Shown: one piece after another, positions 2,757-64,000 of the stretch
How positions within the stretch are numbered: position 1 is the stretch's first letter
Layout: the number at the start of each line of letters is the position of its first letter
DNA from: an uncultured Actinomycetota bacterium
Lineage (GTDB): Bacteria > Actinomycetota > Actinomycetes > Streptomycetales > Streptomycetaceae
Direction: 5' to 3'
Assembly (NCBI GenBank): GCA_963756705.1
Contig: CAVWOS010000009.1
Coordinates: 18,120-82,119, forward strand
Length of the DNA: 64,000 nucleotides
Program-made: the position numbers and the translations under genes
The notes under the pieces: model-generated
The model's database searches: none
What the model was told of the DNA's origin: nothing
The model's input: only the letters and a program-made list of their open reading frames with translations

Positions 2757-3464
2757 ACCCTGCTCCCCCTGCTGCCCCCGTCGGACCAGCGCGTGGCCCT
2801 GGGCGGCTTGCGGGCCTGCGGAGACAAGCGCCGCGCCGCCTACCAGGCGGCCCAGGAAGTTCGCCGCGACGTCTCCAGGGCTATCGCCGTCGCCCTCGGC
2901 GCGGGCGCGGCGCCGGCTGACATCGTGCGCATCGCCACCGAGAGCTATTCCCCCGCCCGCGGCGTGCCGTGCTCGGTGCACACGCGGCAGAGCGTGTACA
3001 AGGTCATCAACTCCGCCGAGGACGCCGGGGGCACGCACGCGGCGGCCGGCAGGCCGGGTCCGGACGAAGCGCTCGACGCGCTGGGCCTGGCCGTGCGAAC
3101 GGCCCTCCCGGCGGTCCACGAACACGAGCTGCACCGCGATGTCCTGGCGCGGGTCATGTGGGAGTGCATCGACGCCGGACGCGGGCCGGCCGAGGTAGCC
3201 GGCGCCTGCGGCTTCGCGTCCGCGGCCGCCTACCGGTACCTCGGCCTGCGGGGACGCTGGAACCGCGTGTCCGCCACTCTGGACAAGCACGGGCTGCTCG
3301 CCGCTGATGAGGTGCTGGTCCGCAACTTCGGCACGGGCATCGTGCTCTGCAATGTCGCCCAGGAGCCGCGTGTCCAGCAGCGGCTGCGGGAGTGCCTGGC
3401 CGAGGCAGGCGAGCGGCTGGGCGCCGGCCGGTACGGCGACTGGGCGGCCGTGCACCCCCTTTGA
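2751..3464 (+). CDS. putative DNA-binding protein with two HTH-like segments
   Basis: GAAPADIVRIA..TRQSVYKVI and GRGPAEVAGACGFASAAAYRYL resemble HTH motifs; strong SD. Confidence 0.55.
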   Translation: MDTLLPLLPPSDQRVALGGLRACGDKRRAAYQAAQEVRRDVSRAIAVALGAGAAPADIVRIATESYSPARGVPCSVHTRQSVYKVINSAEDAGGTHAAAGRPGPDEALDALGLAVRTALPAVHEHELHRDVLARVMWECIDAGRGPAEVAGACGFASAAAYRYLGLRGRWNRVSATLDKHGLLAADEVLVRNFGTGIVLCNVAQEPRVQQRLRECLAEAGERLGAGRYGDWAAVHPL

Positions 3465-3765
3465 TGATGGGAAAGCCGCGTGACCGGACAGCACGCGCCG
3501 GGCAGCGCGGACGCCTACCTCGATCGCCGGCGGAACCTCCCCGCGCAGCCCCGCACGATCCCGGCCCCGCGGCGGCGAACCGCGTTCGGTGGAAGGCCCA
3601 GCGCGAGGCCGCCGTTTCCGCCCGGGCGAATCGCCGGCCTGACCGAGCGCAGCCCGCTGGGCGGCGCGGACGAGTACGCCAGCCCGCGGCAACCCGCGGC
3701 CGGGGGCGAGCGAGAGGCCACGCTTCGGCGCGGGCGCCGTGGCGGCGCGCGGTTGTGGCAGTCGT

Positions 3766-3910
3766 CGGTCATGACCGACGACGCCGCCATCGGTCATGAC
3801 CGATGACCGATGCCCTCCCTATCGGTCATGACCGATAGGGCCTGGGCCGTGACCGATCCGGCTTTCCGTGACCGGTCACGATGACCGGTCGGATGTCCGT
3901 CGGGTGACCG
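3766..3910. repeat. CGGTCATGACCG palindrome cluster and TGACCG(A/G) direct repeats
   Basis: 12-bp palindrome at 3766, 3791 and 3823; the third extends to the perfect 24-bp CCCTATCGGTCATGACCGATAGGG (3817-3840). Confidence 0.85.
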
Positions 3911-3959
3911 GCGCCGCCCCGGCACCGGCGCACGCGTGCATCGGTGGTCGGTGTTTCGG

Positions 3960-5839
3960 TCACGGCCGGGAGCGGCCGACCGAGCGGAGATGGGCGCGGC
4001 CTTGTTCGCGTTGCCGCTGCGCGAGGAGGTCTTTCGCCCGCCGCATGTCGCGCTGGCCGGTCGATGGGGACACCTCGTTGCGTCGGGCGGCCTCGGCGCC
4101 GGACAGCCTCTTCCCTGTTGCTTCGGCCTCGGCCAGCCACTGGACGATGCGCTCGATGCGCTGGTCCTCGGTCAGCTCGCTGACCGGTGTCTGGTCGATC
4201 CACTGCTCAGGGGCGCGGGCGGTGGCCTCCGCGGGGTCGGTCGCCGGCGCTTCCCGTCGCGTCCCGGCCGCCGCGTCGCCGGTACGGGCGGCAGGGATGC
4301 CCGGTGTGAGATCGGGGGCGGCGGGGCGCGGCGGCTGTGCGTCTGCGCCGGGCCGCTCAGCAGTGACCCGAGCAGGCGCCCCCGCGGGGTCGGGGTCCGG
4401 GGTGTGATGCATGGCCGGTGCCGTGACCGATGAGGTGATGACCGATTCCGTGACCGGTGCGGACGGTCGGTGGCCGGTGCGCGGTGGCCGGCCGGATCGG
4501 TCATGCCGCGGTCACTGGCATCCGTGACCGATTCCGTGACCGATTCCGTTGTCCACTCCCCCGGGTCCTGCGCGCGACGGCCGGGGTCGCGCACCGTCCC
4601 TGGCGCGACGGCCGCCGTGTCGGGCGCGGGGTGTGCTCCGCGTGCGGGGTGGGCGCGCTCGGTCTCCTCTGGGGGGCCTTCTCCCGCCGGGGTGGGCTGT
4701 GGCCGGAGTGCCTGGAACTGCTGGAGCTGGTGGCTGTTCGGGAAGGCGCTGTACTGCCCCGCGTAGTCGCGGTAGTCCTGGAACCGGGCCTCGCCATCGT
4801 CCCGGCCCGTGGAATCGGTGGCCGGCCGCGCGGAGCGGGCGGCGGCGTCGGGGTGGGTGTCGGGGTCGTGTTCCCGGGCCGGGTGTTCCAACGCCATGCC
4901 GGCGTCAGGGGCTGCGGCGCCGGCGTGTTCCAACCCGATCGGCTCCGTCGGCCTCTGTTCCAACGGCCCTCGTTCCAACGGCGCCGGTTCCAACGGTTCC
5001 GGTTCCAGCGTGGCGGGCGCCGGGCGGTGCGGAAGGGCCGGCCCTTGGATGCCCGCGGCCTCCAGGCCGGCTTCCGCGGTCTCGGTGAGCGGCACCCCGT
5101 AGCGGGCGAGCCGCAGCGGCATGATCGCCTCGATGGGGGCCTTGCGGCGCCACGCGACGCCGTACCGCGCGCGCAGCCTGGCCCGGTACACCAGCCGGTC
5201 CTGCTCGCGCCGGATGACCTCCTCGTACGACCGCAGCTCCCACAGCTTCATCCGGCGCCACAGCCTGAAGGTCGGCAGCGGGGCGAGCAGCCAGCGGGTG
5301 ATGCGGACGCCCTCCATGTGCTTGTCGGCCGTGATGTCGGCGATCCGGCCGATCGCGTGCCGGGCGGCCTCGACCGAGACCACGAAGAGCACGGGGATGA
5401 TCGCGTGCATGCCGACGCCGAGCTTGTCGGGCCAGGCCGCGGCGCCGTTGAAGGCGATCGTCGCGATGGTCAGCAGCCACGCCGTCTGCCGCAGCAGCGG
5501 GAACGGGATGCGCAGCCAGGTCAGCAGCAGGTCGAGCGCCAGCAGCACGACGATCCCCGCGTCGACGCCGATCGGGAAGACGTTGGCAAAAGCGCCGAAG
5601 CCCTTGTGCAGGGCGAGCGTGCGCACCGCCGCGTAGGAACCGGCGAAGCCGATCCCGGCGATCACCACCACGCCGGACACCACAACGCCCACCAAGATCC
5701 GGTGCGTGCGGGTCAAATGCATACCGCTGTGGGGAGGGTTCACTTGCCGGCCGGCTTCCCGCGATAGGCCGCCGGTGTGGAGAGCGGGGGCCGGCGGTTC
5801 CGGGTCCGCGGTGCGCGGCTCGGTGTCCGGCTCGACCAT
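3960..5839 (-). CDS. DUF2637-family (Spd-like) membrane protein with C-terminal HTH (frameshift near 4430)
   Basis: IAGIGFAGSYAAVRTLA..FPIGVDAGIVVLLALDL..RWLLAPLPTFRLWRRMKLWELRSY signature; C-terminal LSGAEAARRNEVSPSTGQRDMRRA HTH in ORF 3960..4412. Confidence 0.8.
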
Positions 5840-21136: not shown

Positions 21137-21143
21137 CGGCCCC

Positions 21144-21227
21144 GCCTGGGTGGCGCAACGGCAGACGCAGCCGATTTAAAACCGGCCGCCCCCCGGGGGC
21201 ATGCGGGTTCGAGTCCCGTCCCAGGCG
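21144..21227 (+). tRNA. bldA-like: tRNA-Leu (anticodon UAA), class II, bldA-like; G73 discriminator, A31-C39 mismatch, CCA not encoded
   Basis: acceptor GCCTGGG/CCCAGGC; D-arm GCG-CAACGGCAGA-CGC; anticodon arm GCCGA-TTTAAAA-CCGGC (TAA at 21177-21179); variable arm GCCCC/GGGGC; T-arm GCGGG-TTCGAGT-CCCGT. Confidence 0.85.
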
Positions 21228-21292
21228 CCCGCCCGGCCCGACTCGGGCCGACCCTCCCGGGCCACCTCACAACCGACTGACGGAGGAGACCG

Positions 21293-55864: not shown

Positions 55865-57901
55865 ATGACCACCCCGCCCGCGCCCACCGACACGCCCGAG
55901 CCGCTGTGGAGCCCCGGACCCGAGCGGATCGCCGGCGCGCGGCTGACCCGGTTCCACGACTGGGCGGCCGGCGCCCACGGCGCCCCCGCCGCCCGGCCGG
56001 GCGACCCGCAGGGCAGCTACGCCGACCTGCACGCCTGGTCGGTGGACGAGCCGGCGGCGTTCTGGCGGGCGATCACCGAGTGGTTCGACGTCCGCTTCTC
56101 CAGCCCGTACGACACGGTGCTCGCCGACCCGGCGATGCCCGGCGCCCGCTGGTTCCCCGGTGCGACCCTCAACTACGCCGAACACGCGCTGCGCCCCGCC
56201 GAAGACCCCGACCGGGCCGGGCAGCCCGCGCTGCTCCACCTGGACGAGCGGCACGAGACCGGCACCGTGAGCTGGGCGGAGCTCAGCGGCCAGGTCGCCG
56301 CCCTCGCCGCGGAACTGCGCCGCCTCGGCGTCACCCCCGGCGACCGGGTCAGCGGCTACCTGCCCAACGTCGCGCAGGCGGTCGTCGCCCTGCTGGCCAC
56401 CGCGGCGGTCGGCGGCGTGTGGACCTCCTGCGCCCCGGACTTCGGCGCCCGCAGCGTCCTGGACCGCTTCCAGCAGGTCGAGCCGGTCGTGCTGTTCGCC
56501 GTCGACGGCTACCGCTACGGCGGCAAGACCCACGACCGCACCGCCGCCGTCGCCGAACTGCGCGCCGGGCTGCCCACGCTCCGGGCCACCGTGCACATCC
56601 CGCTGCTCGGCACCCCGGCCCCCGAAGGCGCCCTGGAATGGGACCGGTTGACCTCGGGCGAGGCGGAACCGGCCTACGAGCAGGTGCCGTTCGACCACCC
56701 GCTGTGGGTGCTGTACTCCTCGGGCACCACCGGACTGCCCAAGGCCATCGTCCAGTCGCAGGGCGGCATCCTGCTCGAACACCTCAAGCAGACCGGCCTC
56801 CACCTCGACCTCGGCCCCGGCGACCGCTTCTTCTGGTACACCTCCACCGGCTGGATGATGTGGAACTTCCTCGTCTCCGGCCTGCTCTCCGGCGCCACAG
56901 TGGTCCTCTACGACGGCAGCCCCGGCTTTCCTGACGTCTCCGCGCAGTGGCGGGTGGCCGAACAGACCGGCACCACCGTCTTCGGCACCTCGGCCGCGTA
57001 CGTCATCGCCTGCCGCAAGGCCGGCATCCACCCCGGCCGCGACCTGGACCTGTCCGCGGTGGGCTGCGTGGCCACCACCGGCTCACCGCTGCCGCCGGAC
57101 GGCTTCCGCTGGCTGCACGACGAGGTCGCCCGCGACCTGTGGATCGCCTCGGTCAGCGGCGGCACCGACGTGTGCAGTTGCTTCGCGGGCGGCGTGCCGA
57201 CACTGCCGGTCCACGTCGGCGAACTCCAGGCCGCCTGCCTGGGCACGGATCTGCAGGCGTGGGACGCCCAGGGCCGGCCGGTGACCGACGAGGTGGGGGA
57301 GCTGGTGGTCACCAACCCGATGCCCTCCATGCCGATCCGCTTCTGGAACGACCCGGACGGGGCCCGCTACCGGGAGAGCTACTTCGAGATGTTCCCCGGC
57401 GTGTGGCGGCACGGCGACTGGATCACGCTGACCTCGCGCGGCACCGTCGTCATCCACGGCCGCTCCGACTCCACCCTCAACCGCCAGGGCGTGCGCATGG
57501 GTTCGTCCGACATCTACGAGGTCGTCGAACGCCTGCCGGAGATCCGCGAATCCCTCGTCATCGGCATCGAGCAGGCCGACGGCGGCTACTGGATGCCGCT
57601 GTTCGTGCAGCTCGCCGACGGCGCCGTGCTCGACGACCCGCTGGTCGACCGTATCCGCACCGCGATCCGCGCCCAACTCTCCCCGCGCCACGTGCCGGAC
57701 GAGGTCATCCCCGTGCCCGGCGTGCCGCACACGCTCACCGGCAAACGGATCGAGGTGCCGGTCAAGCGGCTGCTCCAGGGCACCCCGCTGGACAAGGCCG
57801 TCAACCCCGGCTCGGTGGACGACCTCGGGGTGCTGCGCTTCTACGAGCGGCTCGCCGCCGAACGCGCCGACGCCGACACGGGCAGGTCAGGCACGGCGTG
57901 A
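55865..57901 (+). CDS. aacS: acetoacetate-CoA ligase
   Basis: YSSGTTGLPKAIV AMP-binding motif, SVSGGTDV, WRHGDW, GRSDSTLNRQGVRMG. Confidence 0.92.
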   Translation: MTTPPAPTDTPEPLWSPGPERIAGARLTRFHDWAAGAHGAPAARPGDPQGSYADLHAWSVDEPAAFWRAITEWFDVRFSSPYDTVLADPAMPGARWFPGATLNYAEHALRPAEDPDRAGQPALLHLDERHETGTVSWAELSGQVAALAAELRRLGVTPGDRVSGYLPNVAQAVVALLATAAVGGVWTSCAPDFGARSVLDRFQQVEPVVLFAVDGYRYGGKTHDRTAAVAELRAGLPTLRATVHIPLLGTPAPEGALEWDRLTSGEAEPAYEQVPFDHPLWVLYSSGTTGLPKAIVQSQGGILLEHLKQTGLHLDLGPGDRFFWYTSTGWMMWNFLVSGLLSGATVVLYDGSPGFPDVSAQWRVAEQTGTTVFGTSAAYVIACRKAGIHPGRDLDLSAVGCVATTGSPLPPDGFRWLHDEVARDLWIASVSGGTDVCSCFAGGVPTLPVHVGELQAACLGTDLQAWDAQGRPVTDEVGELVVTNPMPSMPIRFWNDPDGARYRESYFEMFPGVWRHGDWITLTSRGTVVIHGRSDSTLNRQGVRMGSSDIYEVVERLPEIRESLVIGIEQADGGYWMPLFVQLADGAVLDDPLVDRIRTAIRAQLSPRHVPDEVIPVPGVPHTLTGKRIEVPVKRLLQGTPLDKAVNPGSVDDLGVLRFYERLAAERADADTGRSGTA

Positions 57902-57929
57902 CCGCAGGGCACCCAGCACCCCGGGCGCG

Positions 57930-58283
57930 CTACCCCTGGGGCGCGGTCTCCTCGCGCAGCACGAGGGCCAGCAGGCCGGGGAAGCGCTCCTCCAGTTCCT
58001 CGCGGCGCAGCCGGTTGAATCGCCACACCCCGTCGTCGCGCTGCTCCAGCACACCGGCCTCCCGCAGCACGGCGAAGTGGTAGCTGAGGTCGGCCTTGTA
58101 GACCGGCACGTCGAACGAGCCGCAGGTACGGGACCAGTCGGGGCTGCCGCCGAGCTCGCGCACGATCGCCAGACGCACCGGATCGGCCAGCGCAGCCAGG
58201 ACCCTTTGCAGCGGCACGTCCCGGGGATGGACGTGCGTGGGCAGGGTGCGCCCCCGGTTGGGTCGGGGCGCCTTCGCCATCAT
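57930..58283 (-). CDS. ArsR/SmtB-family regulator (paralog of 45953..46306)
   Basis: HPRDVPLQRVLAALADPVRL..SYHFAVLREAGVL..RFPGLL. Confidence 0.85.
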   Translation of the reverse strand: MMAKAPRPNRGRTLPTHVHPRDVPLQRVLAALADPVRLAIVRELGGSPDWSRTCGSFDVPVYKADLSYHFAVLREAGVLEQRDDGVWRFNRLRREELEERFPGLLALVLREETAPQG

Positions 58284-58353
58284 CCGTCCTCCCGGCTCCC
58301 GTCACGTCACCACGCGAGGTGAGGGACCCATCCCGGCAGGCGGGTGGGCACAT

Positions 58354-58550
58354 GAGTCACATTTCGCCTACATCGAACATAACAGGAAGAGAGTGTGCCT
58401 TCCGATAGCGCGCTGTTCGAGGAGGTGAACGCGCAGCCGCTGCCCTCGCGGAGGCAGCCCGGACATCAGCCCATCGCGTCCCGGCCCTGTCGTCGCGACG
58501 CCAACCCGGCGTAACGAGAAGCCCCCGGATTTATCCGGGGGAGGAGTCAC
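58354..58550 (+). mobile_element. internally deleted IS200/IS605 (tnpB-type) remnant with right-end hairpin
   Basis: GAGAAG-CCCCCGGAT-TT-ATCCGGGGG-AGGAGTCAC is a typical IS605 right end; GAGTCAC also at 58354. Confidence 0.55.
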
Positions 58551-58562
58551 GGGGCAAGCCTT

Positions 58563-58878
58563 TCAGTATGCCGGGTTGCAGGCGGGGGTCTCAGCCGGCG
58601 CGAGTCGTCGCCGTCGCTGTTCGGGTTGATGTATACGCGCGTTCGCCGGCCGGGCCGATACCGGGCGAGGGCCGGCAGGAGTCCTCGTTCGGGGTGCAAT
58701 GGTCGGGATGGCACCCGCCGTGCGCGGCGGCGGCTGGCCGGGGATTGCCGCGACGAGGTCGTCCCATGCGCGACTGGTGACGATCTCCGACAGCGGGGCG
58801 GTGCGGACGTTCCCAGCGGCCATCATGCCGCCGGACATCACGCACCCGGCCACGTCGCCGGACGGCAGGACGGCGGCG
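58563..58878 (-). pseudogene. C-terminal fragment of a radical SAM/SPASM protein with Cys-Pro-rich tail
   Basis: AAVLPSGDVAGCVM..GNVRTAPLSEIV..; tail ..PAETPACNPAY; the N-terminal rSAM core is missing. Confidence 0.65.
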
Positions 58879-59030
58879 CACCGCTCACCGTCGTCCGCCA
58901 GTACATCGAGAACCAGCAGCGACCCACCTGACCGCCACCACGGAGACGCAGAAAACTCCGGCGCTTCGCGCCTCCGTACCAAGGATGCGCCTCACCTCCG
59001 CCCTGAGGACGGAGCACTGCGCAAGATCAG
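58872..59030 (+). mobile_element. tnpA: IS200 tnpA 3' fragment plus right-end hairpin
   Basis: GGAPLTVVRQYIENQQRPT* (Y1 transposase C-terminus, ends 58931); CTCCGCCCTGAGGACGGAG hairpin. Confidence 0.75.
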
Positions 59031-59067
59031 AGGTAGACAACGGCGAGGTGCACGAGGGAACTGCGCG

Positions 59068-59118
59068 TTGAATGCCGTCGCCCCGCCTGTGAGTTGCGGG
59101 CGGGGCGACGGCGTTCAA
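59068..59118 (-). terminator. 20-bp stem hairpin downstream of the graspetide operon
   Basis: TTGAATGCCGTCGCCCCGCC / GGCGGGGCGACGGCGTTCAA. Confidence 0.65.
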
Positions 59119-59158
59119 CTGTGGCAGGCGTCAGCCGGCCGCGCTGGCAGGTTAGCGG

Positions 59159-60313
59159 TCAGAACGATGTGACGACGTTGTCCGGGCTCTTGTGCCAAAG
59201 CTGGTGGACGGCGTCGGTCACGGTGAGGCCGAAGGTGTCCCACCGCGGGCGGCCGAGCTCCTCGAACTTCTGCCAGCAGCGTTCGACGGTGGCCCAGACG
59301 TGGTCGGTGGATTCCAGGGCGCGGCCCGCTTCTCCGTCGGTGTAGAGGGCCTCGGCGGAGGCTCCGCCGGGCAGAACCACCTTCCGGGTGTGTGTGCCGT
59401 CGTCGTGGGTGCCGAACTGGATGGTGGCCCCGGGTAGGAAGGCGGCGAGGAGAAACGTGAACTGGTAGTCGTCGAACGCGTCCTTCGGCACGCGGGTGGG
59501 TTTCTCGCCGGCGGTGTGCTCCTTGCGGGGGGCGGAGAGAGTGTGTCCGTTGACTGCGGGGCGTGCGGGCATGAACTGGCCGCCGTCGGGCAGAAACGGG
59601 CCTTCCAGGTTCCCGGAGGGCAGCCGGGTGAGCAGGGCGAGGCCCCCGCTGAGCGGCGGCATGAGGTTGGCGATCAGCTTCCCTCCCGGTGCCAGGGCTG
59701 CGTGCAGGGTGGGGGTGATCTCGGGCAGTGCGCAGGTGGCAATGATCCGGTCGAAGCCGGCAGCCGGCCATGGGTGGGTGGTGGCGTCCGTGGTGACGAC
59801 GTCGGGCCGGTGGCCACACGCGTCCAGGCGGGCGGCGGCGGACTTGGTGAGGCCGCTGTCGATGTCGGCGGTGGTCAGTTGCCGGGCACTGTCGAGCCGG
59901 CGGCAGATGAGCGCCGCGTTGTAGCCCGTGGCCGTGCCGATCTCCAGCACGCGGTGTGACGGGTCGATGTCCAGGGCTTCGAGCATCCGCACCATGAGGG
60001 ACGGCTGAGTGCTGGATGAGGTCGGGGTGCCCGTCCAGCCGCCGGGCACCGGCCTCGGGTCGTGGAGTTGGGTGACCAGCGTGCTGTTGGTGTAGATGGG
60101 GCCGAGCCAGCCGGCGCCGTCGGCCTCTTCTGTCAGGCGCTCCCACACGGTGGGGGCGCCGCCGGTGTTGCGGTAGTAGGTCGGGACGAACCGGTGTCGG
60201 GGGGTGCCCTCGACGGCGGCGGCCCACCACTTGGAGGTGAGGTCGCCGCTGGCCTCCAGGGCGGCGACGAGGGCCGCGGCGGCGTCCTGCCAGCGGGGCG
60301 GCGACGTGGTCAC
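59159..60313 (-). CDS. PIMT-like (protein L-isoaspartyl) methyltransferase of ATP-grasp RiPP systems
   Basis: TPRHRFVP, TSSSTQPSLMVRML, VLEIGTATGYNAAL, FDRIIATC. Confidence 0.88.
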   Translation of the reverse strand: MTTSPPRWQDAAAALVAALEASGDLTSKWWAAAVEGTPRHRFVPTYYRNTGGAPTVWERLTEEADGAGWLGPIYTNSTLVTQLHDPRPVPGGWTGTPTSSSTQPSLMVRMLEALDIDPSHRVLEIGTATGYNAALICRRLDSARQLTTADIDSGLTKSAAARLDACGHRPDVVTTDATTHPWPAAGFDRIIATCALPEITPTLHAALAPGGKLIANLMPPLSGGLALLTRLPSGNLEGPFLPDGGQFMPARPAVNGHTLSAPRKEHTAGEKPTRVPKDAFDDYQFTFLLAAFLPGATIQFGTHDDGTHTRKVVLPGGASAEALYTDGEAGRALESTDHVWATVERCWQKFEELGRPRWDTFGLTVTDAVHQLWHKSPDNVVTSF

Positions 60314-61260
60314 GTGCACCAGCCTTTCACGGTCTCGGCGATGGCTTCGGCGACCGGCACGACTTCGTGGAGCCATGCGAATTGGCCGGCGGGGTTCGCC
60401 TCGAAGTAGACCCACCTGCCGCCGCGTTCAACCGCGAAGTCGAGCGCCGCGTAGGTCAGTCCCCTGGCGGACATGTAGGCGTTGACGGCGGCCGCGATGG
60501 GTGCGGGGACGTCGATCCGGTCGTACGTCAGTGCGTCGTAGTCGGTCCGCCAGTCCAGGCGGGCCGCTTCGCTGCCGGCGGTGATGCGCACCGCGAGGTG
60601 AGTGCTGCCCACGGCGTACAGCCGAACCTCGTACGCCTTGGTGATCTGCTCCTGCACGAGGTGGGCGGTCGTCTCGATACCGCCCAGGTCGTTCAGGTCG
60701 ACCGGCCGGGTGCGCATGGTCTCCGTGCCGGCGTCGTGGGTGACGTACGGGATGCCCATGGGCTTGGTGACCAGCGGTGTCCCGCAGGTTTTCGCAAAGC
60801 GGCGGACGGCCTCCGGGTCGTTGGTGATCAGGGTTCGGGGGGTGTGCAGGCCGGCGGAGCGGGCCGTGCGGAGCTGGTCGGGCTTGAACTCCGCCGCGCT
60901 GGCGCGGTTGGGGTGGTTCATCCAGGCGACCGGTAAGCCGGCCAGGACGCCGCCGAGGCCGTGCCGCGCGGCGCCGCGGGAATAGTGCTCGTCGGCGGGC
61001 GACATGGCGGGCAGCACGAAGTGGTCCGGACGATTCCAGTACACCGCCCCGATGTCCGCCAACTCAACGGCGCGGTGGTCGGTCTCCAGCACACCCGTCC
61101 AGCCGTCCGTCTCTTCGTGGCGGGCGTCCAGGTGGAGGGACAGGGGGAAGTCGGCCATGTCGAATCGGAAGACGGGCACGCCGACGGCGGCGAGGGCGTT
61201 GACGATCAGGTCGGTGGCCCCGTCATGGGGGCGGTCGACCACCAGGGCGGTGGCGGTCAC
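60310..61260 (-). CDS. tgmB: ATP-grasp RiPP (graspetide) ligase, SAV_5884/TgmB type; one in-frame TTA codon
   Basis: VFRFDMADFP, AVYWNRP, WMNHP..AEFKPDQL, TPRTLITNDP, VTKPM, QEQI, FEANPAGQF; GGC TTA CCG at 60936-60934. Confidence 0.92.
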   Translation of the reverse strand: MTATALVVDRPHDGATDLIVNALAAVGVPVFRFDMADFPLSLHLDARHEETDGWTGVLETDHRAVELADIGAVYWNRPDHFVLPAMSPADEHYSRGAARHGLGGVLAGLPVAWMNHPNRASAAEFKPDQLRTARSAGLHTPRTLITNDPEAVRRFAKTCGTPLVTKPMGIPYVTHDAGTETMRTRPVDLNDLGGIETTAHLVQEQITKAYEVRLYAVGSTHLAVRITAGSEAARLDWRTDYDALTYDRIDVPAPIAAAVNAYMSARGLTYAALDFAVERGGRWVYFEANPAGQFAWLHEVVPVAEAIAETVKGWCT

Positions 61261-61547
61261 TCGAACACCCCGGGGTCGGCGCCCTCGTCGTGCGGCGGCG
61301 GGCTTTTCGGGTCGCCGTCGGGGTTGGTCTTCTGCGAGGTCGACATCGTGGTGAGCGGGGTGCCGTCGGCGAACGCGGCGGTCTGGGTGACCGGGTCGTA
61401 CACCGGCAGCGGCGCGACGGCCCCGGGTGCCCGGGGCGGGCCTGCGGGGGTCAGGTGGGCGCCGGTCACGGCGTACGGGCGGAGGGCGGCCGGTCGGCCG
61501 GCGGTCGGCGCGGGCGCCTGGAGGGGAAACGGCTGGGCGAGCTTCAC
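61257..61547 (-). CDS. tgmA: graspetide precursor peptide
   Basis: leader LRPY..YDPVTQTA; core TTMSTSQKTNPDGDPKSPPPHDEGADPG; coupled to the ligase. Confidence 0.8.
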   Translation of the reverse strand: MKLAQPFPLQAPAPTAGRPAALRPYAVTGAHLTPAGPPRAPGAVAPLPVYDPVTQTAAFADGTPLTTMSTSQKTNPDGDPKSPPPHDEGADPGVFE

Positions 61548-62176
61548 CGGGTTACCTCTTCCTTCACATCTTCGGTGGTGGCGGGGGGATTGAGCGTCAC
61601 GGACATGCCGTTGCGGTCCTTCCGGTCGGTGGGCTGCCCGGTCGGCGGCCGGGCGGGCCCCTGGCGGTGTGGCTGTGGTTCGGCGCAGGGGGTGAGGAGC
61701 GTGCGGGCTGCGGCCATGGTGTTGGCCAGCAGGTCGGACAGGTCGTTGGTCTCGGTGGCGTAGCCGTCGATGATGGTCGCGCGCAGCAGTCCGGCGATCA
61801 GCCGGGAGGTCAACTTCACCTGGTCTTCTGGGTTCTCGGGCAGGGTGCCGCCGCAGAAGCTGAGCAGCAGCGCGCCGGCCGCACGGCTGTCGTCGTCGTG
61901 GCCGATTCGGCCGGCGCCGGGGTCGGGTTCTTCGCTGGTGGCGTACATCAGCCAGCCGTCTGCGGCGAGGAGTTCCGGCCGTTCGCTGCCTATGTGGCTG
62001 TCCTGTTCGGCGAGGTGCAGCAGCTTGCGGATGGCATCGGCTACGTCGGTGGCCGGGTCGAGCTGGTTGAGCAGTTCGAACGGGGGCCGCACGAGGTCGG
62101 CGTGCGCGCGGCTTGCGTGCTCGCGGGCTGACGCCTGGGCAAGGACGGTGAGGGGGTCAGGGGTGTTGTTCCATGA
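61544..62176 (-). CDS. hypothetical protein (frameshift near 62100)
   Basis: AAGGA SD before ATG 62176; stop overlaps the precursor GTG. Confidence 0.55.
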   Translation of the reverse strand, partial: SWNNTPDPLTVLAQASAREHASRAHADLVRPPFELLNQLDPATDVADAIRKLLHLAEQDSHIGSERPELLAADGWLMYATSEEPDPGAGRIGHDDDSRAAGALLLSFCGGTLPENPEDQVKLTSRLIAGLLRATIIDGYATETNDLSDLLANTMAAARTLLTPCAEPQPHRQGPARPPTGQPTDRKDRNGMSVTLNPPATTEDVKEEVTR

Positions 62177-62294
62177 CGGTTCCTTCCGGGCCGGGCCCGC
62201 TGGTGACGGGCCCGGCGCGGTTGATGGGGCGGGTTACGGCTCTGGGCCGAGCAGTTCGCGGAGCGAGGCGACGGTGGCTCCACCCCGCCGTTGC

Positions 62295-62826
62295 TCAGGT
62301 GGCGGTCGCCGGGCCATGGCCGGAGGGGAAGCCGTAGTTCAGTTCGGCCACGTAGTCGCCGGCGAGTGCGGCGAGGGCCTCCCGGATGCGGCGGACCTGG
62401 TACGGGGCGCAGAACTGGTCAAGGTCGGCGTCGGCGACCCACTGGTAGTCGTCAAGCTCGGGCTTCTTGCCGTCCTCGCTCTCGGGGAAGGGTGATCGGC
62501 GTGTCGTGAGGGAGCTCCCCGAAGTAGCGGACGAAGTTGTAGCCGGCAGCGGAGCCTCCCGCCGGTTTGGCCGGCATGAAGTCCTTGACCAGCAATTGCA
62601 GCGGGACCAAGTCGAGGCCGGTCTCCTCCAGCACCTCGCGGGCGGCCGCGTCCCAGTCGGACTCGCCCAGTCCCGCGCCGCCGCCGGGGAGCTGGTAGAA
62701 ATTCTGTCCTTCCTCCTTGTACGTCGGGCGAACCACGAGGACCCGTCCGGTCTCGTCCAGGAACAGGCCCAGGGCGCCGATGCGCACGGGGGGCGGGGAT
62801 GTGGGGTCGGTGTCGAAGTGCGACAT
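62295..62826 (-). CDS. NUDIX hydrolase (frameshift near 62485)
   Basis: LPGGGAGLGESDWDAAAREVLEETGL Nudix box. Confidence 0.88.
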
Positions 62827-62942
62827 GAGGCTCCTTGAGTGGGTGGTGGTGCCGAGTGGTGATTGGCAGGCGGTCGGGTCGGGTTGGGTACGGATGGGCG
62901 GGGCGGGGATGCCGTGCCGCCAGAAGGCGGGAGCGCCGGCCA

Positions 62943-63848
62943 CTACAGGCCGACCCGCTGCCGCCACATCGGTGGGTCCTCGAACTCCGCTCGGGTGGGC
63001 ACCAGGTCGCGGTTGGTCCAGACGAAATTCCACAGGTCGCCGCAGCTCGGCGGCATGGTCTCCTGCACGAACATGAATTCCGGGCCCACGGGGTGCGCCG
63101 GCTGGCTCCGCCGGAGCAGGTACGCCCGCAGCTCGTCGCGCGACGCGGGCGGAGGAGGCGTTGTACCGTGGCGCGCCTGCTCCCAGCGGACCGCGGTGCG
63201 GTTGCGGGCGTAGAGGAGTCCCTGGCGTATCGGGGTGTGCAGAGAGGTCCGCGCTGTCTCCTCCTGCGGGAACTGCTGTCCGCTCAGGTGGTAGGTGACC
63301 AGGATCTCGGCCCAGTCCGCGTGACCCTCGGCGAGGGCGTCCACCATCCGGTCCTCGGTCGGGTCCGGCCGGGGGCTGAGCCGCGGTGGGACGACACGGC
63401 CGGCGCTGTAGTGGATCTGGGCCTGGTGCACACCCTCGTGGATCACGAATCGCGGGAGGCCCGAAAAGGTCTTGGTCAGGCCCGTGTGGTGCAGCGCCCT
63501 GGGACAGATGAGCGTTTCAGGTACACCGTCCAGGGTGGTGATCGTCATGCCGTTCATCAGCGGCCATCGCCACCGCACCTTGGACCGCCACCGCTTCTGT
63601 GTGCGTCCCGCTTGCCGCGCGTCCTCAAGGGTGGGCGGGGAGATGTCCATGGCGCCTTGCAGGCTCCGCCGCACGTAGGCCCGCACCTCGCTCCGCCACA
63701 CGCGGGGGGTGACCAGGCGGAACGTGCAGCGCGGCAGTGGCAATTCCGTCACCTTCTCGATCACGGGTATCGCCGCGGTCAGCGTGTCGGTGACAGTGGT
63801 GGCGAGGGCCCCGTTCGTGCCGGTCTCGTCCCGCACTTCGACGGTCAC
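62943..63848 (-). CDS. zincin-like metallopeptidase
   Basis: HEGVHQAQ (HExxH) plus downstream LAEGHAD third-ligand motif. Confidence 0.65.
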   Translation of the reverse strand: MTVEVRDETGTNGALATTVTDTLTAAIPVIEKVTELPLPRCTFRLVTPRVWRSEVRAYVRRSLQGAMDISPPTLEDARQAGRTQKRWRSKVRWRWPLMNGMTITTLDGVPETLICPRALHHTGLTKTFSGLPRFVIHEGVHQAQIHYSAGRVVPPRLSPRPDPTEDRMVDALAEGHADWAEILVTYHLSGQQFPQEETARTSLHTPIRQGLLYARNRTAVRWEQARHGTTPPPPASRDELRAYLLRRSQPAHPVGPEFMFVQETMPPSCGDLWNFVWTNRDLVPTRAEFEDPPMWRQRVGL

Positions 63849-64000
63849 CGCGAGCTCCCCCGGCCGGCCCCCGGACGGGTTCTCATGACTACGGTGACCG
63901 GCACGACGAGGTCGGCTCCGGTCGGCTGTGGGACACGGACACTTCCCGCTCGACCGGGTCGGTAGCGCCGCCCTGGACCTATTGGCCGCTCACCGCGGCT

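Follow-up and report, generated by a model that had tools for sequence, protein, structure and literature searches.

A probable graspimiditide operon with a fuscimiditide-like predicted core on a plasmid/ICE-like contig

The window analyzed here is a 64,000-nucleotide stretch of an actinobacterial contig. Positions 59159-61547 of its minus strand are filled exactly by three ORFs, which encode a precursor peptide (A), an ATP-grasp maturase (B), and a PIMT-like methyltransferase (M). The first-pass annotation had described these genes as coupled, and the three minus-strand ORFs, their family matches, and the overlaps between them bear this out. A GTGA stop/start overlap is found at all junctions, i.e., orf182/A, A/B, and B/M. 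The called frames have a GC3 of 0.87-0.94, a strong coding signal, and all three cluster ORFs are intact. The ribosome-binding site read from the sequence, AAGGAAGAGG (61555-61564, minus strand), lies 7 nt ahead of the GTG start of the precursor gene. A GC-rich hairpin (59067-59119, minus strand) lies ~40 nt 3' of the methyltransferase stop and is the likely operon terminator. cmscan also identified this inverted repeat, which lacks a T-tract, as a hairpin; an Rfam search of 57800-64000 returned nothing meaningful.

The precursor gene (61257-61547, minus strand) encodes a tgmA-type peptide of 96 amino acids. It scores 26.3 bits against TIGR04186 (cut-off 25), matches PF14408 weakly, and aligns with ThfA, the fuscimiditide precursor. 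Its 14 database homologues share 52-74% identity and a near-invariant core, and the nearest full-length precursor is 73-74% identical. The leader contains the motifs FPLQ (residues 7-10), RPYA (23-26), and YDPVTQTA (50-57), and the core extends from approximately T70 to E96. The core string quoted by the first-pass annotation, TTMSTSQKTNPDGDPKSPPPHDEGADPG, is present at residues 66-93. In the 15-sequence alignment, T74, D77, G78, D87, E88, and D91 are invariant and T70 is nearly so. An AlphaFold2 model of the unmodified precursor, built with 15 sequences, has a pLDDT of 60.8 and consists largely of coil; its one small hairpin lies in the leader (residues 49-58). The model has no hairpin in the core and is uninformative there. 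ThfA before modification is likewise a random coil (bioRxiv 10.1101/2021.05.19.444834).

The ATP-grasp peptide maturase (60310-61260, minus strand, 316 aa) is of the tgmB type, and its GTG start overlaps the precursor stop. Its match to TIGR04187 spans positions 1-310 of 312 (E 2.3e-101; the score of 339 bits falls slightly short of the curated 350), and the MvdD pre-ATP-grasp domain PF21068 is matched above its cut-off. These family matches place it among MvdD/SAV_5884-type ATP-grasp enzymes. Among solved chains, 9bou_A (131 bits) and MdnC 5ig9 are the closest, and the PDB relatives of the enzyme are graspetide ligases; a literature search on PDB entry 9BOU gave nothing relevant. This is the single TIGR04187-like match in the whole genome.

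The PIMT-like aspartyl O-methyltransferase is of the tgmC type. Its longest ORF encodes 418 aa from a start at 60415 and shares 106 nt with the ATP-grasp gene. Because the TIGR04188 match begins only at residue 49 of this ORF, translation most likely starts at the GTG at 60313, within the GTGA overlap with the ATP-grasp stop; a GTG at 60319 is the alternative. From 60313, the gene (59159-60313, minus strand) encodes 384 aa. PF01135 (PCMT) is matched at residues 134-249 of the 418-aa ORF (E 4.6e-16), and TIGR04188 at E 1.5e-84 (284 bits, below the curated 380). The ATP-grasp enzyme and the methyltransferase are regarded as divergent family members because both fall below the NCBIfam curated cut-offs (339/350 and 284/380). 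In the 384-aa protein, the PCMT fold occupies approximately residues 100-215 and is followed by a C-terminal extension of ~165 aa; PDB PIMTs match only residues 80-220. A PCMT core extended at the C-terminus by more than 100 aa is typical of RiPP PIMT homologues. A conserved W..FGLT block is also found at the C-terminus. RiPP PIMTs are marked by a WxxxGxP motif near the C-terminus (PMC13001092). The exact motif is absent here, where WQKFEELGRP is followed by WDTFGLT, and five sister enzymes have the motif (WADNGRP and the like) at the aligned place.

Upstream of the precursor lies orf182 (61544-62092, minus strand), a mobile-element-type hypothetical protein with a strong GC3 signal, whose stop overlaps the precursor start. 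It sits between a frameshifted NUDIX neighbor and the precursor, where the loci L002 and L003 have ~110-125 bp. orf182 is outside the conserved cluster as judged by gene content: it is absent from 15/15 sister loci, and 62 further genomes in the genus lack it as well. Its homologues are remote (38-42% identity) and occur in phage/plasmid-like gene arrays. A role as a ligase "partner protein" (cf. PMC13097080) was rejected on the same grounds. AlphaFold2 without an alignment was uninformative (pLDDT 45.7).

The contig itself is plasmid/ICE-like: besides ParA and DUF2637, it carries the remnant of an IS200/IS605 end and a second tRNA-Leu(UAA). No close plasmid emerged from PLSDB when 48 kb of the window were searched by megablast, and comparison of the contig ends revealed neither a terminal repeat nor a circular overlap. 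The suggestion that the cluster is mobile is thus plausible, given this contig and the patchy distribution of the cluster, but not proven.

The ATP-grasp gene has a single TTA codon (Leu109; 60934-60936, minus strand, "taa" on the plus strand). TTA occurs in 8/15 sister clusters, compared to ~10% expected from the background of this genome (P = 3e-5), though its position is not conserved among them. Against their own flanks, the clusters have 0.84 vs. 0.40 TTA per 1000 codons. This twofold excess is not significant (Fisher P = 0.10), and cluster-specific selection for TTA is not claimed. The codon proposed earlier to gate the cluster is present, but gating itself is inferred from one non-conserved codon. 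The cluster could be silent in this strain, either through bldA-limited translation or through displacement of its promoter by the inserted orf182. The TTA codon, the position of orf182 between the NUDIX neighbor and the precursor, and a sigma-70-like promoter scan that found none, though such a scan is ill-suited to Streptomyces, point in this direction. Silence is nevertheless improbable in view of three intact ORFs with a strong coding signal and preserved coupling, and of two tRNA-Leu(UAA) genes in the genome, one of which is on the same contig as the cluster.

The cluster almost certainly belongs to the graspimiditides (group 13 graspetides; NCBI tgmA/tgmB/tgmC). Graspimiditides require adjacent genes for a precursor, one ATP-grasp enzyme, and a PIMT-like O-methyltransferase, and these are present here. 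The proposal of a fuscimiditide/amycolimiditide-type cluster is upheld by the family matches of all three proteins and by the core alignment. A graspimiditide core has a Thr/Ser region at its N-terminal side, then a loop in which an Asp-Xaa is conserved, and an Asp/Glu region at its C-terminal side. The corresponding elements are T70/S71/T74, N-P-D77-G78, and D87/E88/D91. In fuscimiditide, whose core is AGTMRVTYPDGQKPGQSDVEKD, the esters are T3-D22 and T7-D18 and the aspartimide is Asu10 (Elashal et al.; bioRxiv 10.1101/2021.05.19.444834). MAFFT aligns ThfA T3/T7/P9-D10-G11/D18/D22 on T70/T74/P76-D77-G78/D87/D91. As judged by sequence pattern and MAFFT, the spacing of a fuscimiditide-type bicycle with two nested Thr-Asp pairs is found here: three residues separate the donors and three the acceptors, and P-D-G occupies loop positions 2-4.

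The predicted stem-loop core is T70-S-Q-K-T74-N-P-D77-G78-D-P-K-S-P-P-P-H-D87-E-G-A-D91 (61275-61340, minus strand). Two esters and a D77-G78 aspartimide are predicted because this core aligns with that of fuscimiditide (T70-x3-T74, N-P-D77-G78, and D87-x3-D91). In the proposed pathway, the ATP-grasp enzyme would bind the leader through its FPLQ, RPYA, and YDPxTQTA motifs and phosphorylate Asp side chains. Two nested Thr-Asp omega-esters would follow, T74-D87 inside and T70-D91 outside, forming a β-hairpin stem around a proline-rich 12-residue loop (NPDGDPKSPPPH). The methyltransferase would then methylate D77 in the cyclized peptide, and displacement of methanol by the Gly78 amide would generate an aspartimide, from which ring opening can yield isoAsp or Asp. 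By mass, a shift of -36 Da is expected from B alone and one of -54 Da from B together with M. D77 is the likely modified Asp. The Asp-Gly had been singled out beforehand as the probable aspartimide site, and the alignment of D77-G78 (codons at 61314-61319) with ThfA D10-G11, together with its invariance in the subfamily, supports this. The exact pairing T74-D87 plus T70-D91 is favored somewhat above even chances. Taken as a whole, the three genes probably form an intact A-B-M operon, coupled in translation, for a group 13 graspetide with two Thr-Asp esters and an aspartimide.

A different number or register of esters is unlikely. Such a product could have a third ester from S71, E88 in place of D87, or a side chain joined to E96 or to the C-terminal carboxylate, as proposed for SsfA. 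Conservation extends to S71, E88, and the C-terminal Glu (E96), SsfA(B) is reported to have five esters with one postulated to the C-terminus, and albusimiditide departed from the simplest prediction in some details and had to be mapped experimentally. The T-x3-T/D-x3-D spacing and the position of PDG, on the other hand, match fuscimiditide residue by residue. The cross-strand partner of S71, position 90, is variable (A/G/S/Q/D/P) and is not an acceptor save for an occasional Asp.

The first-pass annotation also raised Lys-derived amides. K81 is not conserved, and K73 is invariant within the subfamily. In the register set by T74-D87/T70-D91, as inferred from the alignment, K73 and E88 are direct cross-strand neighbors, and an omega-amide between them on the opposite hairpin face, made by the same single ATP-grasp enzyme, is geometrically possible. 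Graspetide ATP-grasp enzymes in general are able to form amides, and neither residue varies across the 15-sequence alignment or the inspected rows of a 2023 genome-mining table, save for a degenerate Kitasatospora albolonga copy. This invariance does not discriminate, however, as the non-crosslinkable M68, P83, P84, G89, P92, and G93 are equally invariant. In a sister subfamily, DEG is retained but Pro occupies the position of K73, and a salt bridge explains the K73/E88 pair equally well. Microviridin-type graspetides with a Lys omega-amide have a second ATP-grasp ligase of the MvdC/MdnB type, and no such amide-forming ligase is found in the operon. All four characterized graspimiditides contain Thr-Asp esters only, with a modified Asp-Gly in the loop, and ThfB, the nearest characterized enzyme, rejects a Glu acceptor and Asp-to-Glu substitutions. 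A third, amide staple is therefore very unlikely. If formed, it would yield the first graspimiditide with mixed ester and amide staples on both hairpin faces; B alone would then cause three dehydrations, one of which would be methanolysis-resistant.

The Lys/Pro-rich core had been called unusual, a view contradicted by its abundance: at least 31 table rows, the 14 database homologues, and 15 species-representative genomes. The core pattern MATS[QK]KTN[PQ]DGD.KNPPP[SH]DEG.DPG..E occupies at least 31 rows of the 2023 table (PMC10787088 supplementary dataset), including S. rapamycinicus NRRL 5491, S. violaceusniger, S. iranensis, S. acidiscabies, S. sparsogenes, S. albireticuli, S. fildesensis, and others. 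These catalogued precursors share the leader, core, and A-B-M trio with the window cluster, but the latter lies on a plasmid/ICE-like contig and has an extra upstream ORF. The window core departs from the consensus only by A69S and N82S, and the exact string MSTSQKT is not in the 2023 table. The putative core is one loop residue away from that of database homologue P0013 (TSQKTNPDGDPKNPPPHDEGADPGVFE). The same trio with -4 overlaps is found in 15 other species-representative genomes (14 Streptomyces and 1 Actinomadura), and A, B, and M are the only genes shared among these sister loci. None of the sister loci has the zincin-like orf301, so its candidacy as a dedicated leader peptidase is not supported.

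The cluster adds an ordinary new member to an actinobacterial class that is already well described, and it is no new kind of system. Its description as a new member stands: it is uncharacterized, and the core type was listed in 2023, yet no member of the Pro-rich "NPDGD.KNPPP.DEG" subfamily has been made so far. Interest is modest, and the current understanding of graspimiditides is unchanged. Making the product would test whether the T-x3-T/D-x3-D rule predicts linkages across subfamilies and whether the methyltransferase tolerates a rigid proline-rich 12-residue loop. It would also show whether the conserved Lys and Glu form a staple or a salt bridge. With a plasmid-like contig, its own tRNA-Leu(UAA), and a TTA in the ligase gene, bldA gating of a RiPP is simply testable here.

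The subfamily looks like the Streptomyces counterpart of fuscimiditide. As in the ThfB/ThfA/ThfM system of Thermobifida fusca, a precursor is encoded with one ATP-grasp enzyme and a PIMT homologue. The leader motifs FPLG and RPFG of ThfA correspond to FPLQ and RPYA, and YDPxxQ is found in both, although overall precursor identity is only 29%. The gene order is A-B-M here and B-A-M (thfB-thfA-thfM) in T. fusca. The loop is Pro-rich and 12 aa long, compared to 10 aa in fuscimiditide and within the 10-12 aa range of graspimiditide loops, and a five-residue tail (PGVFE) extends beyond the last Asp. Fuscimiditide is a singleton in the Link similarity network, whereas the core type described here has dozens of members. 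Characterized graspimiditide methyltransferases act on the cyclized peptide only. Albusimiditide (S. albidoflavus J1074), amycolimiditide (A. cihanbeyliensis), and SsfA(BM) (Streptomyces sp. F-3) differ in that their cores are unrelated in sequence, their stems are longer and rich in Thr/Ser and Asp, and their esters number four to five and follow an alternate-residue TxT/DxD spacing. They share the A-B-M order with the window cluster, as well as the stem-loop ester architecture and modified Asp-Gly in the loop that are predicted here.

The operon is composed of three minus-strand ORFs at 59159-61547, and every particular observed in the first-pass annotation holds. The 96-aa precursor (61257-61547) matches TIGR04186, "putative ATP-grasp-modified RiPP," at 26.3 bits (cut-off 25) and, weakly, PF14408; the peptide string quoted in that annotation is found at residues 66-93. 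The 316-aa ATP-grasp ribosomal peptide maturase (60310-61260) matches TIGR04187 (E 2.3e-101; 339 bits, slightly below the curated cut-off of 350) and PF21068. The methyltransferase (59159-60415, 418 aa at its longest) matches TIGR04188, "ATP-grasp peptide maturase system methyltransferase" (E 1.5e-84; 284 bits, below the curated cut-off of 380), and PF01135 PCMT (E 4.6e-16). AAGGAAGAGG is located 7 nt 5' of the precursor GTG start, and the precursor TGA and ATP-grasp GTG share a GTGA overlap. Because the TIGR04188 match leaves out the N-terminus of the long ORF and starts at residue 49, the methyltransferase most likely begins at the GTG at 60313, which would form a second GTGA overlap. GC3 is 0.87-0.94 in the called frames, and a GC-rich hairpin (59067-59119) lies 3' of the methyltransferase stop.

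This trio is a graspimiditide cluster (group 13 graspetides). The same three genes define the class, which bears out the earlier assignment to the fuscimiditide/amycolimiditide type. In graspimiditides, the ATP-grasp enzyme builds omega-esters between side chains, after which a PIMT homologue methylates a single Asp, leading to an aspartimide. Each of the four characterised members, fuscimiditide, amycolimiditide, albusimiditide, and SsfA(BM), is a stem-loop that has Thr-Asp esters and, in its loop, a modified Asp-Gly. The methyltransferase has a PCMT core, with PDB PIMTs covering only residues ~80-220 of 384, and, as is typical of PIMT homologues associated with RiPPs, a long C-terminal extension. 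Its match to the published WxxxGxP motif is approximate (WQKFEELGRP...WDTFGLT); in five sister enzymes the motif is exact. The cluster is intact, its class is well described, and its core type is already present in genome-mining tables.

The core had been called unusual, which it is not. A search of 5.8 billion proteins returned 14 precursor homologues (52-74% identity) whose C-termini hardly vary, and 15 sister loci are found in species-representative genomes (14 Streptomyces, one Actinomadura). The supplementary table of the 2023 PIMT survey by Kim and colleagues (PMC10787088) contains at least 31 rows with MATS[QK]KT...NPPP[SH]DEG cores, including S. rapamycinicus NRRL 5491, S. violaceusniger, S. 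iranensis, S. antimycoticus, S. acidiscabies, S. sparsogenes, S. albireticuli, and S. fildesensis. The exact MSTSQKT...KSPPPH of the window is absent from that table. Across T70-E96, a single loop substitution, N82S, separates the window's core from that of homologue P0013. In the homologue alignment and the table, position K81 varies (K/G/N/D) and K73 is invariant. Given these rows and a literature search that returned no characterised member, the subfamily is catalogued, with none characterised in the literature searched.

Only the three genes are common to the 15 sister loci, and the flanks diverge. Directly upstream of the precursor, and joined to its start by a GTGA overlap, is orf182, which is absent from all 15 sister loci and the rest of the genus; its remote homologues occur only in phage/plasmid-like arrays. 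These homologues are ~155 aa, with Helicase_C/HA, DUF4314, and GP88 as array neighbours. A 98%-identical, 209-aa version of orf182, P0016, has its ATG start 27 codons further upstream, where the window (region 61544-62233, minus) reads TGG. Beyond orf182 is a NUDIX hydrolase gene (62295-63033, minus) with a frameshift near 62475-62530: its homologues in three sister loci match it in two different frames. In three loci (L002, L003, and L011), the precursor has an intact NUDIX gene upstream, so NUDIX and the trio may be an older unit. In L002 and L003 the NUDIX gene directly precedes the precursor; thus orf182 looks like an insertion between the two. Next comes a protein of 301 aa (62943-63848, minus), which contains an HEGVH motif and has no Pfam match of its own. 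It is rare (seven proteins found) and absent from the sister loci; PF10103 (Zincin_2 metalloprotease) is present in its few homologues, which are 31-43% identical.

Downstream, ~120 bp past the terminator, 58872-59037 is a solo IS-end relic. This ~170-bp IS200/IS605 element end is 81-86% identical to multi-copy sequences in two related genomes, where copies are often at contig ends. In a third, complete genome it spans the last codons of tnpA and the adjoining element end. It is single-copy in this genome, which contains no tnpA. A 139-aa ORF (58563-58982, minus) has a SPASM iron-sulfur domain (PF13186, E 2.5e-4) without a radical-SAM core, and looks like what is left of the C-terminus of a radical-SAM peptide maturase, with the IS end on one side and an ArsR gene on the other.

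The cluster was also proposed to be mobile, and horizontal movement on a plasmid or ICE is plausible. Its 91.6-kb contig encodes ParA and a partner, a DUF2637 protein, and an AAA_10-type ATPase. Clusters of the tgmABC type occur on 38 PLSDB plasmids (60-80% nucleotide identity), including a 122-kb S. atratus plasmid where the cluster adjoins parA. However, a megablast of 48 kb of the window against PLSDB found no close plasmid, and no terminal repeats were found at the contig ends. Among 63 genomes of the genus, 31 have some graspetide ligase (35-44% identity); this subfamily occurs in only one (G005), with 62% identity and little flanking synteny. On the S. atratus plasmid (NZ_CP108278.1, circular), the sister-subfamily cluster (3238-5684, core MQTHTPTIPDGSVDNPPPLDEGPKD) is 2.6 kb from the ParA gene, and its methyltransferase is annotated merely as "methyltransferase domain-containing protein."

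The annotation further suggested TTA gating. A single TTA, codon 109, occurs in the ATP-grasp gene, and bldA-type gating, though possible, would depend on this one non-conserved codon. TTA occurs in 8 of the 15 sister clusters, at eight different positions. This is a sixfold excess over the genome background of 0.13 per 1000 codons (binomial P = 3e-5), but only a twofold excess over the clusters' own flanks at 0.40 per 1000 (Fisher P = 0.10). The pattern is most simply read as the TTA richness that accessory Streptomyces DNA shows in general. Of the two tRNA-Leu(UAA) genes in the genome, one is at 21143-21230 (+) and the other on a 1.59-Mb contig (C16:895318-895401). The former is 38 kb from the cluster, on the same 91.6-kb plasmid/ICE-like contig, which has about four real TTA-containing genes.

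In the 22-aa fuscimiditide core, AGTMRVTYPDGQKPGQSDVEKD, mutagenesis and NMR showed two esters, T3-D22 and T7-D18, and placed an aspartimide at D10 (bioRxiv 10.1101/2021.05.19.444834). Precursor sequences of characterised graspimiditides were taken from the 2023 table. In the MAFFT core alignment, T3, T7, P9-D10-G11, D18, and D22 of the fuscimiditide precursor ThfA correspond to T70, T74, P76-D77-G78, D87, and D91. The leaders share YDPxxQ, and FPLG and RPFG of fuscimiditide correspond to FPLQ and RPYA. Because core and leader align, an inner ester T74-D87 and an outer ester T70-D91 are predicted, with 12 residues (NPDGDPKSPPPH) looping between the stem strands, a length inside the 10-12 aa range given for graspimiditides. 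The aspartimide is predicted at D77-G78. At D79 the next residue is Pro, which would lack the amide hydrogen needed for attack on the methyl ester. By analogy with ThfM, AmdM, and SsfM, which act after ester formation and on cyclised peptide only, the esters would be made first and the methyltransferase would then act only on the cyclised peptide.

The annotation also raised Lys-derived amides. An omega-amide (isopeptide) between K73 and E88, in addition to the esters, is geometrically conceivable, since the two are direct cross-strand neighbours in the predicted register, on the hairpin face that does not carry the esters, and neither varies within the subfamily. It is nonetheless improbable. 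Several residues incapable of cross-linking are equally invariant, and the sister subfamily (THTPT[VI]PDGS..NPPPLDEGPKD, in S. sabulosicollis and the S. atratus plasmid) keeps DEG yet has Pro at the K73 position. Every characterised graspimiditide has Thr-Asp esters only, the fuscimiditide ligase ThfB accepts Thr-to-Ser but not Asp-to-Glu substitutions, and the cluster has one ATP-grasp gene, the only such match in the genome.

The two-ester stem-loop is the preferred prediction. AlphaFold2 models the core of the unmodified precursor as coil, as expected from the random-coil state of ThfA before it is modified (bioRxiv 10.1101/2021.05.19.444834). By pattern, fuscimiditide is the closest characterised analogue of the cluster.
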